In this document: piece by piece, positions 1,321 through 56,250 of the stretch
Position numbering within the stretch: position 1 is the stretch's first letter
Layout of the letters: every line of letters begins with the position of its first letter
DNA from: Escherichia phage ukendt
Sequence record: NC_052661.1
Strand: one strand, 5' to 3'
Length of the DNA: 64,000 nucleotides
Made by a program: the position numbers and the translations under genes
The notes under the pieces: model-generated
Told to the model about the DNA's origin: nothing
Seen by the model: only the letters and a program-made list of their open reading frames with translations
Databases searched by the model: none

Positions 1321-1810
1321 TTATAGGAAGTGTTACAAGAGGATCATCTTCTTCAATTTCCATCTTGTCATCTTCTGTTTCAATGAGAGTATTATGCACT
1401 TTGTGATAAGGGTTGTCAACACGTTTAAACTTATTCTTTTCTGTGCTGAAAAAACAATCTGGATCTTCTTCACCATCACCCCAACCTTGATTAGGATCTC
1501 CGTCAGATTGTTCTGTAGGGATTTCACCTGTAAAGTACTCTTCCAGCACCATAGCAATACCGTCTCTTGGATTTGAGGAATGCATTAAATCACAAACCTT
1601 ACCCCAATCCGTAGCCCATTCGAACCGTTCACGAACGCCATTTTCACCCTCTTTTCCAGAGAAAACACAACCATAACTATCATAGTTGCCATACATCTCT
1701 TCAATAACAACACCGTCCTTCAAAAGAAAGAGGTAGCAAGGTGATCCGTCGAAAGAAGTAGAAAGGGCAGCTTTGCCCGATTCTTTGCACAAAAAGCTAA
1801 AACAACCCAT
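1247..1810 (-). CDS. hypothetical acidic protein
   Basis: 187 aa ORF, Asp/Glu-rich C-terminal half; overlaps next gene by 74 nt. Confidence 0.45.
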   Translation of the reverse strand: MGCFSFLCKESGKAALSTSFDGSPCYLFLLKDGVVIEEMYGNYDSYGCVFSGKEGENGVRERFEWATDWGKVCDLMHSSNPRDGIAMVLEEYFTGEIPTEQSDGDPNQGWGDGEEDPDCFFSTEKNKFKRVDNPYHKVHNTLIETEDDKMEIEEDDPLVTLPISELQKITKEAYDLGFKIGRGGMRV

Positions 1811-18891: not shown

Positions 18892-19161
18892 TTAATGATT
18901 AGTGATGTTGATGACAATCTTAGTTTCAACCTTAGCCCAACAGTAGTCTGCTTCATTAAAACGACTAGTCACAATGTATTCTCCTGCACGAGAACCTGTT
19001 AAGCACACTGCACCTGTATCTGTAGCTAAGTAGTAGTCCCGTTCTTGTTCACTTACTTCTGAATCGTAGTAGTAGAAAACAGACATAGGTTCAATTTCAT
19101 CTAAACGATATAATTTTGGAACAGGGGATTTCTCGATAAACTCGATAGAAGTCTTACTCAT
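18892..19161 (-). CDS. hypothetical protein
   Basis: 89 aa ORF. Confidence 0.5.
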   Translation of the reverse strand: MSKTSIEFIEKSPVPKLYRLDEIEPMSVFYYYDSEVSEQERDYYLATDTGAVCLTGSRAGEYIVTSRFNEADYCWAKVETKIVINITNH

Positions 19162-19394
19162 TTGTTTTCTCCTAGATCTAAACTAATTAAGAAGTCACGA
19201 AGGATGATCATTTGTTCTGTAGATAATGATAATACACCTTCTCCATAAATATCACCAGACCATTCAGCAGTTAGATCTAGTGTACCAGTACCAGGAAACC
19301 AATCAATAGTGATCTGATTACCATTAGAGTCAGGTAGTATTTCACTAACTAACATAACACACTCTCCTATTATTGTTCTTGATCTTACGATCAT
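19158..19394 (-). CDS. hypothetical protein
   Basis: 78 aa ORF. Confidence 0.5.
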   Translation of the reverse strand: MIVRSRTIIGECVMLVSEILPDSNGNQITIDWFPGTGTLDLTAEWSGDIYGEGVLSLSTEQMIILRDFLISLDLGENK

Positions 19395-19464
19395 CTACCG
19401 ATAAGAACAAGTACTTAAATCTCTGTTCTTCGAACATCTAACGATAGAGATTAATCTATTACAT

Positions 19465-19528
19465 AATCTATACTCGCTATCGCTCGACCCTTCGGGGTTA
19501 GGGTAGCATATTTTTTGAAAAAAGTCAA
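19465..19528. repeat. conserved 65-bp intergenic element, copy 1
   Basis: AATCTATACTCGCTATCGCTCG, hairpin ACCCTTCGGGGT, then TTAGGGTAGCATATTTTTTGAAAAAAGTCAA. Confidence 0.55.
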
Positions 19529-19881
19529 CACTTATTTTTGGTAAGTAGAGAAATCAATTGTTCACCTGCTTCTGGTGCATATAGTGCTTTAGTATCGAAG
19601 TCAAAGAAGTGAGTGACCCCTGTTACTTTGGATGCCTGAATAGATAATCGTGCAAGCTTAAGCAGATTATCCATTTCCGCAATCTTTGCACGAAACACTG
19701 CACGTGTAGCGTCAAAAGCTGTATGTGGCATGTATTTACGATTTAGACTACTACGTTTAAATTTACGATAATCTGCAATGATTCTGTTACGTTCTTTGTT
19801 CAAGTGTTTTACCAGTGCAGTGTATACATGTGGTTCTTTGTTAGCCATTGTTAATCTCCTCTTCATATGTTGGTAGTGCAT
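19525..19881 (-). CDS. hypothetical protein
   Basis: 118 aa ORF. Confidence 0.5.
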   Translation of the reverse strand: MHYQHMKRRLTMANKEPHVYTALVKHLNKERNRIIADYRKFKRSSLNRKYMPHTAFDATRAVFRAKIAEMDNLLKLARLSIQASKVTGVTHFFDFDTKALYAPEAGEQLISLLTKNKC

Positions 19882-20627: not shown

Positions 20628-20774
20628 TTAAACCTCCTCGTAGTAAGGCAAAGCTTTGATCAGCTGTTCTGAAGTGCCATTCTCTGTCCATGTAACCCCG
20701 TTGTCAAGAGAAACATACCCTTTCTTATCGATAAATTTACGGAGACAACCAGTGAACTTGTTTTTGTAGATCAT
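20628..20774 (-). CDS. hypothetical small protein
   Basis: 48 aa ORF not in track; start overlaps upstream stop (ATGA). Confidence 0.3.
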   Translation of the reverse strand: MIYKNKFTGCLRKFIDKKGYVSLDNGVTWTENGTSEQLIKALPYYEEV

Positions 20775-21214: not shown

Positions 21215-21328
21215 TTGTTTTCTCCTTTTGTTTGGTAGGAGTTGATCTTAACAAGATTAAAAAGTATGTCAATACTTGATCTGAAATTATTTTCAGGTAT
21301 CATGTATGAACATTAACAAGAGAGGTAG

Positions 21329-21622
21329 ATGATGAACATTACTTTAGCAACTAAGAATATTTCTGAAACAATTAACGGTTTTGGTGTGATTGTAGCCTTG
21401 CACGGTAACAATGAGAAATGGTTGGCTTCTTTTGAAGAGGATCGCCAACACAACATTATTTTAGATGCCCCTATAAAAGTTATGCATATCGTTGGTGAAA
21501 GCAAAGTGCTCACTTCCTCCCGTTCAAAAGAACAAATTACAAATGAATTAGTAAAACTGCTTGACAATGTTCTTAACATGTTTGATAATGCACCCATCGA
21601 TACAAAACGTGTCTTAATGTGA
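21329..21622 (+). CDS. hypothetical protein
   Basis: 97 aa, first gene of plus block, RBS AGAGAGG. Confidence 0.5.
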   Translation: MMNITLATKNISETINGFGVIVALHGNNEKWLASFEEDRQHNIILDAPIKVMHIVGESKVLTSSRSKEQITNELVKLLDNVLNMFDNAPIDTKRVLM

Positions 21623-39044: not shown

Positions 39045-39374
39045 CATGATATTTGGGAATTGTCGCTGCGTGGACCTGACGGCCCGAAAATTCGCGTTAA
39101 GCACTTCTTACGTATGCGCCATGATTTTTGCCATATGATATTGATTCTATTAGATATTCTTGCCATGAAACAAGGTGTGTCGAAATAATCTCTCCCCGTA
39201 GATATTTTGGGTTACTTTTTATACAAGAGTGGGGTGTCAAAAATAATCGGTATATATGGGATAATTGATAGGAATCCCCTATGGTAATTCGATTGTAATT
39301 CCTTAAGATTGATCGTATGATGTTGGTGATTGATGATTGCCATGAAAGATGGCTAACGATGAGAGGAGATTGTC

Positions 39375-52122: not shown

Positions 52123-52542
52123 ATGTTAGGTAAGATCAAAGCTTTTTTCAAACGTATTATTGAAGGAAGTCCAACAGAAGGTGCATTAGGAAGATCTCTA
52201 ACAGGAGAACCACTTTCCATAATTTCTATCAGTCGGTATGGTGGATATTCAATTCGACAAACACCTTTAGGTATAGAAGGTAGTATGCTTTCTTGGACAA
52301 TATCTCAAGTTGGTGATAACAGACTTGCAGCTATAGCGTTACTTCGTGGGGAGTATGACTACTGTTTATCAGCATCTTGTAAAAAGCACCTCATAGAGCA
52401 CATTAGAGACAGAGTAGAAAGAGAAGGCGGATACTTCTTCGAAACTAAGAGAAACGAACAAGGAACTCTTGACTTCACTAAGGTTTACTGGGACAATCAT
52501 ACTCGTCAAACTGTTGAACAACTTCTGGAGGAAAGATGTTAA
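52123..52542 (+). CDS. hypothetical protein
   Basis: 139 aa ORF. Confidence 0.5.
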   Translation: MLGKIKAFFKRIIEGSPTEGALGRSLTGEPLSIISISRYGGYSIRQTPLGIEGSMLSWTISQVGDNRLAAIALLRGEYDYCLSASCKKHLIEHIRDRVEREGGYFFETKRNEQGTLDFTKVYWDNHTRQTVEQLLEERC

Positions 52543-52745
52543 AAGCTTTTGCTATATACTCTACTGTAGGATTCTTTTATTGGATTATAGTTATTGTTGG
52601 ATGTTGGTTAGGTTCTTCTGTTGTGATGGGAGAATGGTTAACATACAATGTATTTGAATGGGATGTATTTTGTAGATCATTACTTGTTATATGGACTGTT
52701 ATTGTTTGTTGGATAACTGTTAGTCTAACATTAGATCTATACTGA
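52536..52745 (+). CDS. small membrane protein
   Basis: 69 aa; two TM segments. Confidence 0.45.
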   Translation: MLKAFAIYSTVGFFYWIIVIVGCWLGSSVVMGEWLTYNVFEWDVFCRSLLVIWTVIVCWITVSLTLDLY

Positions 52746-52839
52746 TTAATAGATGGTAGATAGATGATTATAGTTTATCTACCTTCACTTACGTTTCATA
52801 CCTCACTATCGTGAGTAACATGAAACATTATTATATAGA

Positions 52840-52904
52840 AATCTACTACTCGCTATCGCTCGTAAACATATGTTTAGGGTACCATATTTTTTTGAAAAAG
52901 TCAA
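52840..52904. repeat. conserved 65-bp intergenic element, copy 2
   Basis: AATCTACTACTCGCTATCGCTCG, hairpin AAACATATGTTT, then TTAGGGTACCATATTTTTTTGAAAAAGTCAA. Confidence 0.55.
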
Positions 52905-53105
52905 TGCTGGTTCACCTATCAATTATGTGTTTAAGATAAGTCTTACCTATCAATCCAATTCTTACTTTATATTACACCCATAGTAAGACTATTCTTATGG
53001 TTATTAATCACCTTCTTCTGTAGAATGTAATTAGATCCTTGACAAACTCACAAAGCTTGTGTTACATTATGTCTCACAGGTGAATAATACCGAACAGGAG
53101 GAAGA

Positions 53106-54618: not shown

Positions 54619-55227
54619 ATGGAAGAGAAGATTTGGGATGGTAAAGATCCTTTAGAAGTGGGACATGTAGCACGTGTCAAAAAATCTACTACAGGCCCTG
54701 GTTTTTCTGGTTTGTATCATATACCAGAAGAGGGTCAGCACGTTACAATTTTGGCTCGTGACAAACAAAACGGATCAACACCTGTGTGGATTGTTCGTTG
54801 GTATGACAAAGATCTTAACATTTGCTTGTCACCTATTATGGCTCATTTGCTGGAAGCCCCTTGCTCTGAAGAAGCTCTCATTTTTGTTTCGGCTTTTCAG
54901 AAAGCCACAGGTTTAACATTAGATGCAAAAGATGTGCAAAAAGCATTTGACATTATTCAGGAAGACAACGATACTACATCTAACGACGAACTGGTTGAAG
55001 TTACAATCTTATCTTCAGCAGATATTCGAGAGATTGATAATTGTGATTTTCCAATCACATTTAAAATGTCACAGAAAGACGTGCAGTCATCTGGAAGTTG
55101 TTTTGGTATACCTCGTTGGTTTTTTGATTCTATCAAAAATTCTACTACAGAGGGATCAGATTATGATCAAGATGACATGCTTTGGTTCTTAAAAAACCGA
55201 GAGATTGTTCTCTCACCACTTAAGTAA
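54619..55227 (+). CDS. hypothetical protein
   Basis: 202 aa; RBS AGGAGG. Confidence 0.5.
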   Translation: MEEKIWDGKDPLEVGHVARVKKSTTGPGFSGLYHIPEEGQHVTILARDKQNGSTPVWIVRWYDKDLNICLSPIMAHLLEAPCSEEALIFVSAFQKATGLTLDAKDVQKAFDIIQEDNDTTSNDELVEVTILSSADIREIDNCDFPITFKMSQKDVQSSGSCFGIPRWFFDSIKNSTTEGSDYDQDDMLWFLKNREIVLSPLK

Positions 55228-55236
55228 GGAGAAATA

Positions 55237-55338
55237 ATGGTTTCATTTATCGTAGGTGTAGTTGTAGGCTATCTTATTAACAAATATCAAGACGTTATCA
55301 CGGCAAAAGTAAAAGACATTTTAGACTCATCTAAATAA
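55237..55338 (+). CDS. small hydrophobic peptide
   Basis: 33 aa ORF not in track; RBS AAGGAGA. Confidence 0.3.
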   Translation: MVSFIVGVVVGYLINKYQDVITAKVKDILDSSK

Positions 55339-55576: not shown

Positions 55577-55858
55577 ATGGAACTCGTTCAAGAACTGTAT
55601 AATGCTTTAGGAGCAAAAGGAAAAGATTGGCCCGAACATGCGCTTATTGCTATAAGAGACTCCGATGGTGAGATTAAGTTTTCAAGCGTAAGTAAAGAGC
55701 ACATTGTACAAACAAAACTGGGTATTTATATGCGTGGAACTTATTGCTTATTCAACACCAGAATGGTAGAAGCCCCTGTTATCGAGGATGGAACAAAAGG
55801 TTGCCCCACAATCGTAACAAAAGCTGAATATGAGAAGTTTTTCTACGCTAAGGCTTGA
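55577..55858 (+). CDS. hypothetical protein
   Basis: 93 aa; followed by terminator. Confidence 0.5.
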   Translation: MELVQELYNALGAKGKDWPEHALIAIRDSDGEIKFSSVSKEHIVQTKLGIYMRGTYCLFNTRMVEAPVIEDGTKGCPTIVTKAEYEKFFYAKA

Positions 55859-55902
55859 CACAGAAACAATACTATAGGATAGTGATTCTATCGTAGCAAT
55901 AG

Positions 55903-56221: not shown

Positions 56222-56250
56222 AAAAGGCACCCACTTGGGTGCCTTTGTTT
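56222..56250. terminator. bidirectional rho-independent terminator at the convergent junction
   Basis: AGGCACCCA...TGGGTGCCT hairpin flanked by an A-run upstream and a T-run downstream. Confidence 0.6.

Follow-up and report, generated by a model that had tools for sequence, protein, structure and literature searches.

The DNA examined here is a stretch of 64,000 nucleotides (nt) from Escherichia phage ukendt (sequence record NC_052661.1), referred to below as the window, and the subject is a 65-bp intergenic element that occurs in it twice. The window belongs to a phAPEC8-like E. coli myovirus (Phapecoctavirus, Stephanstirmvirinae) and is 97-99.5% identical to relatives of ~150 kb, the closest being vB_EcoM_01 (PP129558). 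Its genes are organized in blocks, on the minus strand at 1-21.2 kb, on the plus strand at 21.3-56.2 kb, and on the minus strand again from 56.25 kb on, and a search of the window for transfer RNA (tRNA) genes found none. Copy A of the element lies at 19465-19528 and copy B at 52840-52904, where a first-pass annotation had placed them, and both were confirmed in the sequence. They share the same DNA orientation, as also reported, yet copy A sits between minus-strand open reading frames (ORFs) and copy B between plus-strand ORFs; every neighbouring protein falls in a PHROG group without known function. The stretch TACTCGCTATCGCTCG is identical in copy A (19471-19486) and copy B (52847-52862), with shuffles of the window giving 0.17 matches even when 3 mismatches are allowed, and TTAGGGTA[G/C]CATATTTTTT, which is also common to both copies, is expected 0.06 times by chance. 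The central 12 nt read ACCCTTCGGGGT in copy A and AAACATATGTTT in copy B; each is a palindrome, with differences between the copies in three of the four stem pairs. The repeat looks like a regulatory signal made of a promoter and a hairpin leader, not like a recombination repeat.

The informative strand of the element is the minus strand, opposite to the one on which it had been described, and there it reads as a -35/extended -10 promoter with a leader, whose G.U pairs work only on that strand. Both copies run TTGACT-N14-TG(C/G)-TACCCT-AA, then a 13-nt variable segment, then CGAGCGATAGCGAG (the box), and then (T)AGATT (Table 1), and the string TTGACT-N14-TGN-TACCCTAA matches copies A and B only in the window, both on the minus strand. 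A family of 35 distinct sequences was collected by scanning contigs from viruses and metagenomes with patterns; it spans Phapecoctavirus, Justusliebigvirus, and Klebsiella phages (named or provisional genera) as well as unclassified metagenomic lineages. As expected of a sigma-70 promoter, the -35 agrees with the consensus at five of six positions in A and B, and all six box-anchored copies in two complete genomes carry TTGACT, TTTACT, or TTGACA. The spacer, for which 17 ± 1 nt is usual, measures 17 nt in A and B; its length stays at 17-18 nt throughout the 35 family sequences, with a variable sequence, and the TG at -15/-14 (TGC in A, TGG in B) is TGN in all family members, a constancy that the search patterns partly imposed. 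A pyrimidine-purine step stands at positions 6/7 after the -10 in ~12 copies that were read by hand and not computed, the C-type copies described below excepted. The usual 7-nt distance to the -10 would place the transcription starts at G 19493 (copy A) and A 52869 (copy B). None of the sigma-32, sigma-54, sigma-28, and sigma-E classes appears to fit as promoter class; the -10 of the module may partly resemble a sigma-S-like -10 (C at -13 and -8). The string TTGACT-N14-TGS-TACCCTAA was also tried alone as a family marker and was rejected, as its unrelated matches are about as many as chance predicts, so that the promoter string is not diagnostic by itself.

Table 1. Positions and predicted parts of the two copies of the element in the window
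Feature	Position	Strand	Remarks
Copy A -35 TTGACT	19523..19528	-	5/6 match to TTGACA; overlaps stop codon of upstream minus-strand ORF 19525-19881
Copy A extended -10	19500..19508	-	TGC 19506-19508 and TACCCT 19500-19505; 17-nt spacer to -35
Copy A hp1, ACCC-CGAA-GGGT	19487..19498	-	Predicted start G 19493 in loop
Copy A box CGAGCGATAGCGAG	19473..19486	-	Folds C-G, G.A, A.G, G-C, C-G; loop GATA
Rest of copy A leader	19356..19472	-	AGATT 19465-19469, further hairpins, ribosome-binding site AGGAGA 19363-19368; ends at ATG 19355
Copy B -35 TTGACT	52899..52904	-	
Copy B extended -10	52876..52884	-	TGG 52882-52884 and TACCCT 52876-52881; 17-nt spacer
Copy B palindrome AAACATATGTTT	52864..52875	-	Predicted start A 52869
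Copy B box CGAGCGATAGCGAG and outer stem	52846..52865	-	Box 52849-52862; 3-bp stem TTA 52863-52865 / TAG 52846-52848
Two hairpins downstream of copy B	52752..52828	-	52791-52828 and 52752-52786; before 3' end of convergent gene 52536-52745

The element is conserved well beyond its surroundings. A query of 81 nt around copy A finds matches in 135 phage records, with at least 99% identity in 59 of them, whereas 1.5 kb around copy A reaches at least 99% identity in only 3 records, a difference (59 vs. 3) that is counted here as support for purifying selection on the 81-nt element. Among the records listed by BLAST, the element occupies two places per genome in Phapecoctavirus and Klebsiella phages and mostly three in Justusliebigvirus. 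With the box alone (CGAGCG-N1-2-AGCGAG) as the query, exactly three matches were found in each of the complete genomes of vB_EcoM_01 and EmilieFrey, and all six have a -35 located 17-18 nt upstream of TACCCT, a link between box and promoter that the search did not impose. The search for further copies that had been suggested with the repeat thus led to a third one: the statement that the element is present twice holds inside the window, and complete relatives carry exactly three, the third being more diverged, inverted, and outside the window. This copy C, which a relaxed search of the complete vB_EcoM_01 genome brought out, lies at ~55212-55267 of PP129558.1 (L004 5212-5267, plus strand) and at 39054-39111 of the EmilieFrey sequence (L152, plus strand). 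It is inverted relative to A and B and stands in a divergent intergenic region at the head of a block formed by a tRNA array and then structural genes, and its box is located in the loop of a covarying 5-bp stem (TTAAC/GTTAA in one genome, CCCCC/GGGGG in the other). Across the family, the spacer sequence, the 12-16 nt past the -10, and the sequence after the box vary, and the box is constant except for its centre.

The three module positions are syntenic between Phapecoctavirus and Justusliebigvirus, and in the two complete genomes, A and B are separated by 31.7 and 28.6 kb and B and C by 41.1 and 39.6 kb. Within the leftward block, module A is found 1.7 kb below the head and has the direction of both of its neighbours; module B, within the rightward block of small early-type genes, runs opposite to both of its own. 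The description of the two copies as bracketing the plus-strand block is accordingly correct only loosely, as A stands 1.7 kb outside the start of the block and B 3.3 kb inside its end. An orientation-independent role had been proposed as well; it does not agree with the constant orientation of every module in all lineages sampled or with copies A and C pointing with their downstream genes. A search of E. coli genomes gave no match to the element, which therefore was not borrowed from the host, and dispersed repeats of the repetitive extragenic palindrome (REP) or miniature inverted-repeat transposable element (MITE) kind are ruled out by the exactly three syntenic copies per genome and by their lack in E. 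coli genomes. The first pattern used on viral contigs (TCGCTCG-N-TTAGGGTA) was too loose, gave mostly chance matches, and was discarded.

The first-pass annotation had taken the central hairpin as the key structure, but the most constrained part is the block to its left, which on the other strand is CGAGCGATAGCGAG and is itself a small hairpin. This box (CGAGCG-AT-AGCGAG, 13-14 nt) forms a C-G pair, tandem G.A/A.G pairs, a G-C pair, and a C-G pair around a GNA or GNNA loop, and its centre is A, AT, C, or GG in different lineages, which gives the loops GAA, GATA, GCA, and GGGA on a fixed stem. RNAalifold predicted these pairs unprompted on two different alignments. An outer stem often extends the box and shows compensatory changes, for example TTA/TAG in copy B of the window against TACC/GGTA in copy B of Justusliebigvirus; TTAAC/GTTAA and CCCCC/GGGGG occur in the C copies and GTGC/GTAT in the contig L157. 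In 25 distinct sequences, 72.5% of the outer-stem cells pair, compared with 31-54% when the partners are slid, and the covariation score of 0.241 (at most 0.165 for slid partners) was reached by 0 of 500 shuffles. The pair adjoining the box is C-G in 14 of these sequences and A-U in 8, and 23 paired cells of the outer stem are G.U, which would be A.C on the strand first read and are mismatches in DNA. The compensatory changes and the G.U pairs therefore place the structure on the promoter strand and favour RNA. A distant B-type copy at 1531-1720 (plus strand) of L137, an IMG/VR contig of 91.8 kb, replaces GC-loop-GC by GTGC-CATA-GCAC and keeps the flanking CGAG..CGAG, so that its variant box reads CGAG-TGC-CATA-GCA-CGAG; about five more small hairpins follow, with GUA, AUA, or UAU loops closed by CC/GG, and this region looks like a multi-hairpin non-coding RNA. 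The window has 0 matches to Rfam at gathering thresholds, and relaxed thresholds around A and B gave chance-level matches only.

The palindrome between the -10 and the box, here called hp1, is the structure that had first drawn attention, and the claim that its stem-loop is kept despite sequence change stands: ~10 different stems occur at this place in related phages, exceeding base-shuffled controls. A palindrome of 3-4 bp is found in all A-type copies, in three of four B lineages, and in no C copies, with stems that include ACCC/GGGT, ACCT/AGGT, AACC/GGTT, CAC/GTG, AAAC/GTTT, and GAC/GTT and a loop that is often GAA. The summed stem length is 81, compared with 59 ± 3 in the base-shuffled controls, which argues that the structure of hp1 is conserved. 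The fold energy of hp1 in copy A is -2.4 kcal/mol with DNA parameters and -3.7 kcal/mol with RNA parameters. The centre of its loop lies 6.5-8 nt past the -10, on the predicted start, and the 3' arm of hp1 shares nucleotides with the outer stem of the box in several copies, which makes the two structures mutually exclusive.

Downstream of the box, the two copies in the window differ in what they would transcribe. Copy A has a 5' leader of ~136 nt that leads to the gene at 19158-19355 (minus strand); the mechanical ORF at 19158-19394 (minus strand) starts at 19394, and the PHROG coverage (residues 14-78) together with the annotation of relatives indicates the ATG at 19355 as the start. Orthologous A leaders in eight other lineages contain a second hairpin of 16 pairs, 7 of which have compensatory changes, with invariant U.G pairs and an apex of C-GUA-G or C-GUUA-G, followed by a ribosome-binding site and a conserved small ORF (MDVMT...). 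This covarying hairpin gives good support to transcription of the promoter strand and to selection on the structure of its RNA. Copy B is followed in every lineage by ~95-104 nt of hairpins, located between the box and the 3' end of the convergent gene and containing no ORF; the predicted RNA folds better than its shuffles (z of -1.2 to -3.5), and the relative ASO2A carries a plus-strand terminator annotation in the region 52752..52828. As copy B is antisense to both neighbours and has no ORF, its product is a candidate small or antisense RNA, for which the sequence suggests a length of 100-130 nt. In a consensus structure of the whole B transcript across genera, only the box hairpin emerged, the sequences being too diverged to align. 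A conserved MLLT peptide downstream of B was considered and discarded, having no ribosome-binding site and a length that varies from 3 to 10 amino acids. The hypothetical-protein ORFs that public annotations of relatives place over the module (phAPEC8_0059/ASO2A_058, bas61_0171, bas61_0091, and MVUOKPPV_CDS0245; 52820-52939, plus strand, in the window) were judged spurious and are probably false gene calls, because they are 32-45 amino acids long, have no ribosome-binding site, and lie over a conserved non-coding motif.

Two further sequence features accompany the modules. The sequence AGATCTAA (core TAGATCTA, with a GATC site) follows the module by 110-340 nt, either on the strand of the module or palindromic on both, at 19271-19278 (minus strand) and 52731-52738 (minus strand) of the window and at L004 5360-5371; it is near three of three modules of vB_EcoM_01 and two of three of EmilieFrey, with only ~14 occurrences per 150-kb genome. 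Two exact ACCTATCAAT direct repeats stand upstream of copy B, at 52914-52923 and 52945-52954 (plus strand; 52914..52954 as a whole), i.e., 10 and 41 nt from its -35 and 31 nt apart from start to start, and CCTATCAAT is likewise doubled in phiWec188; they might serve module B specifically as a binding site for a regulator.

The three modules are best read as members of one regulatory class, in which a sigma-70-type promoter is joined each time to a conserved hairpin box at the 5' end of the transcript, a reading given a probability of about 60%. Their architecture, copy number, synteny, conservation, covariation, and strand are shown by the sequences; promoter activity, start sites, and the role of the box are inferred from them. 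In such a scheme, host RNA polymerase with sigma-70 would bind TTGACT and, 17 nt on, the extended -10 TG-n-TACCCT, would start transcription ~7 nt downstream at the purines predicted for A and B, and would transcribe the invariant box within the first 25 nt, where it would fold into a compact hairpin. Module A would serve as an internal promoter in the leftward block for replication and nucleotide metabolism, with a long structured 5' untranslated region leading to a small gene; module B would fire against the flanking plus-strand genes into ~100 nt of ORF-less hairpins, probably producing a small or antisense RNA; and module C would head the tRNA and structural-gene block from its divergent intergenic region. 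The box would most likely be the recognition site of a trans-acting factor that marks the three transcripts or their polymerase; such a factor could control how stable the RNA is or how it is processed, or could render transcription resistant to termination.

Several points weigh against this reading. Of the six positions of TATAAT, the -10 TACCCT keeps only three (T-12, A-11, and T-7), because of which a consensus promoter scan does not call the A or B sites, and it is partly circular that TACCCT and TTGACT are invariant in the sequences taken from metagenomes, as the search patterns required both. Searchable literature yielded no transcript or start-site data for this phage group. The nearest-neighbour energy of the isolated box is small (-0.8 kcal/mol for DNA, -1.5 kcal/mol for RNA), copy B has no gene to drive, and its hairpins are without a clear U-tract. 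In addition, hp1 straddles the predicted start, and its 5' arm would therefore be missing from the RNA of this promoter; the promoter reading does not explain hp1, which may act in read-through RNA (A-type copies being inside an operon) or at the DNA level, or may simply occupy the only 13-16 nt of the compact module that are free of constraint.

Among known systems, the 5' stabiliser hairpins of bacterial and phage mRNAs, such as that of the ompA 5' untranslated region, also place a stable hairpin within the first 4-10 nt of the (here predicted) transcript, followed by AU-rich AGAUU, which resembles an RNase E site. However, stabiliser hairpins need no particular sequence, whereas the 13-14 nt of the box are invariant across genera and paralogues, and this invariance argues for specific recognition. 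The lambdoid signals (lambda nutL/nutR with boxA and boxB, HK022 putL/putR, and qut at PR') are alike in having few copies close to a promoter and in combining a short conserved box with a small hairpin of variable sequence. They differ in that copy B of the module heads no operon, and the minus strand has neither the boxA of lambda nut (CGCTCTTA) nor a boxB-type pentaloop; the plus strand, itself unsupported, has only CGCTCG(T/A) resembling boxA. To our knowledge, no N, Q, or put-like partner has been identified for the modules.

A broader possibility, to which only a small share of the probability is given, is that the box is a portable cis-acting hairpin that would act on the transcription or replication machinery itself and not through a partner particular to the phage, either as a put-like antitermination RNA or as an origin with a mini-hairpin in the non-template DNA. 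It is kept open because unrelated environmental contigs carry TACCCTA, ~10 nt, CGAGCGAAGCGAG, and a flanking stem. These contigs (L154 935-1070 and ~30 from IMG/VR, L153-L186) are podovirus-like, encode a terminase, an SU10-type portal, and Cpn10, and have the arrangement TATACCCTAT-CCCCCCCAA-CGAGCGAAGCGAG-TGGG as a divergent inverted pair upstream of the terminase gene. TACCCTA, ~10 nt further the box CGAGCGAAGCGAG, and a flanking stem make up the layout, of which TACCCTA and the box were required by the search, which leaves the flanking stem, the pairing, and the location between genes as the independent observations; cultured phages searched with this element gave no match. If it were true that the box modifies the polymerase or primes origins, it would be relevant past this phage group.

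The DNA form of this idea can be set out separately, and it is rather unlikely. Here, the modules would be transcription-activated origins or priming sites, at which the displaced non-template strand folds mini-hairpins (C-GAA-G in hp1, GC-GNA/GNNA-GC in the box) that stabilise an R-loop or recruit the primase-helicase of the phage. The extraordinarily stable mini-hairpin motif described by Hirao and colleagues is known from the G4, St-1, and alpha3 origins, where it occurs at the primase site for the complementary strand, from RSF1010 ssiA (CCGAAGG), and from the N4 virion RNA polymerase promoters (PMC13037366). The box cores GCGAAGC, GCGATAGC, GCGCAGC, and GCGGGAGC and the hp1 sequence CCGAAGG, which is present in copy A and is that of RSF1010 ssiA, fit d(GCGNAGC) or d(GCGNNAGC) exactly (PMC13037366). 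For example, the inner part of the copy A box (GCGATAGC) fits d(GCGNNAGC), and GCG-N(1-2)-AGC is found in 34 of the 35 family sequences, the L137 variant being the one that does not fit. The location is also alike, at a start of nucleic-acid synthesis, in this case a predicted one; with its loops GATA, GCA, and GAA, the box agrees better with the DNA motif than with a GNRA tetraloop of RNA, and the position of hp1 across the RNA start is easier to explain at the DNA level. T4 ori(uvsY) and ori(34) consist of a middle promoter and a downstream unwinding element. The three module copies per 150-kb genome recall these origins and the T7 primary origin (promoters 1.1A/B and an AT-rich region), in that a large lytic phage genome carries, more than once, a promoter with a conserved downstream element. 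In T4 and T7, however, this element is AT-rich and not sequence-specific, whereas that of the module is a GC-rich invariant hairpin, and neither AT-rich unwinding elements nor iterons are present at copy A. Many G.U(T) pairs, which are mismatches in DNA and point to RNA, occur in the outer stems and in the hairpin of the A leader; the mini-hairpin motif alone is not enriched in the vB_EcoM_01 and EmilieFrey genomes; and DNA parameters give the box 0 to -0.8 kcal/mol, in a model that omits the special stability of the motif. The module further differs from the DNA mini-hairpins in its location inside a double-stranded genome past a sigma-70-type promoter and in its extra layer of tandem G.A and C-G pairs. 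We know of no single-stranded DNA stage, primase site, or N4-type polymerase for these phages, and the annotation of the complete relative EmilieFrey lists no RNA polymerase. The N4 hairpin promoter itself has a 5-7 bp Watson-Crick stem and a 3-nt loop, compared with two inner G-C pairs and G.A in the box.

Less credible still is a box that acts as a double-stranded operator at approximately +8 to +25, through which a phage or host repressor would shut the three promoters together, with the hairpin being incidental. The sequence of the box is invariant among the three paralogues and in every lineage, and its place right after the start is a classic one for a roadblock. Its halves, however, are direct repeats and not inverted ones, and the distance between CGAGCG and AGCGAG varies by 1 nt (centre A, C, AT, or GG) and would, in a duplex, turn the half-sites relative to each other; such a change is easy for a loop of 3 or 4 nt and awkward for a double-stranded operator. 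Between the -10 and the box lie 6 to 16 nt, L137 keeps CGAG..CGAG while swapping the inner stem for a longer complementary one, and the flanking outer stems covary.

A structured RNA or attenuator on the plus strand, in which a C(UUCG)G hairpin is followed by a T-run, is very improbable. Copy A does read ACCC-UUCG-GGGU there, with a very stable tetraloop, and a scan lists a terminator-like site at 19487-19504 (plus strand), but UUCG is present in copy A only and no such call is made at B, the T-run begins 11-12 nt past the hairpin, the box is C-rich and unstructured on that strand, 23 paired cells become A.C mismatches, and the RNA would be antisense to the genes at A and would point away from those at C. 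An intrinsic terminator was rejected on the same T-run distance and the same lack of a call at B, as well as on the lack of a U-tract after either minus-strand hairpin. The weakest alternative, that A and B are substrates of site-specific or homologous recombination bracketing an excisable or invertible block, draws on direct repeats with ~50 identical nt and on a site-specific recombinase annotated in EmilieFrey, but it is hardly credible, and the recombination role proposed in the first-pass annotation is not supported, since the recombinase gene lies tens of kb from the copies, no dyad-symmetric half-sites flank a central crossover dinucleotide as in a serine recombinase site, BLAST finds the element in two to three places in the relatives listed with no deleted or inverted genome seen, and the order, orientation, and spacing of the copies match in two complete genomes, one Phapecoctavirus and one Justusliebigvirus, which argues against recombination at the copies.

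With a promoter class carrying a hairpin leader as the preferred reading, the module is real and strongly conserved, and although of a familiar kind, it has apparently not been described before. It lacks the features that define nut sites, N4 hairpin promoters, intrinsic terminators, or recombinase sites, and no Rfam family matches it. The literature searched for phAPEC8 promoters, Stephanstirmvirinae, and the literal box sequences contained no description of it, and the rV5 and ASO2A papers give generic sigma-70 scans only. Stephanstirmvirinae (phAPEC8- and phi92-like phages) are widely isolated and have been proposed for therapy, and no publication was found on how they organize transcription. 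A class of three promoters that share an invariant hairpin leader would give the group its first defined regulatory signal and would offer a handle on how the replication-gene block, the tRNA and structural block, and a small or antisense RNA are coordinated. With its 13-14 nt, an invariant sequence, and an unusual structure (tandem G.A with a GNA/GNNA loop), the box is easy to approach by mutation, pull-down, or reporter assay.

Other signals in the window are of different kinds. A perfect 10-bp GC-rich hairpin (AAAGGCACCC-ACTT-GGGTGCCTTT) at 56223-56246, with T-runs on both strands, stands at the convergent junction of the plus and minus blocks and is likely a bidirectional terminator. Many promoter-like sites elsewhere, such as those at 21245-21272 (minus strand), 21561-21589 (plus strand), 20679-20707 (minus strand), 54947-54975 (plus strand), and 55855-55883 (plus strand), have a perfect TTGACA, a spacer of 16-17 nt, and either a G-initial -10 (GATAAT, GAGAAT, GATACT, or GATAGT) or a TG-preceded TAAGAT. 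These sites may form a separate early promoter class, apart from the three TACCCT modules.

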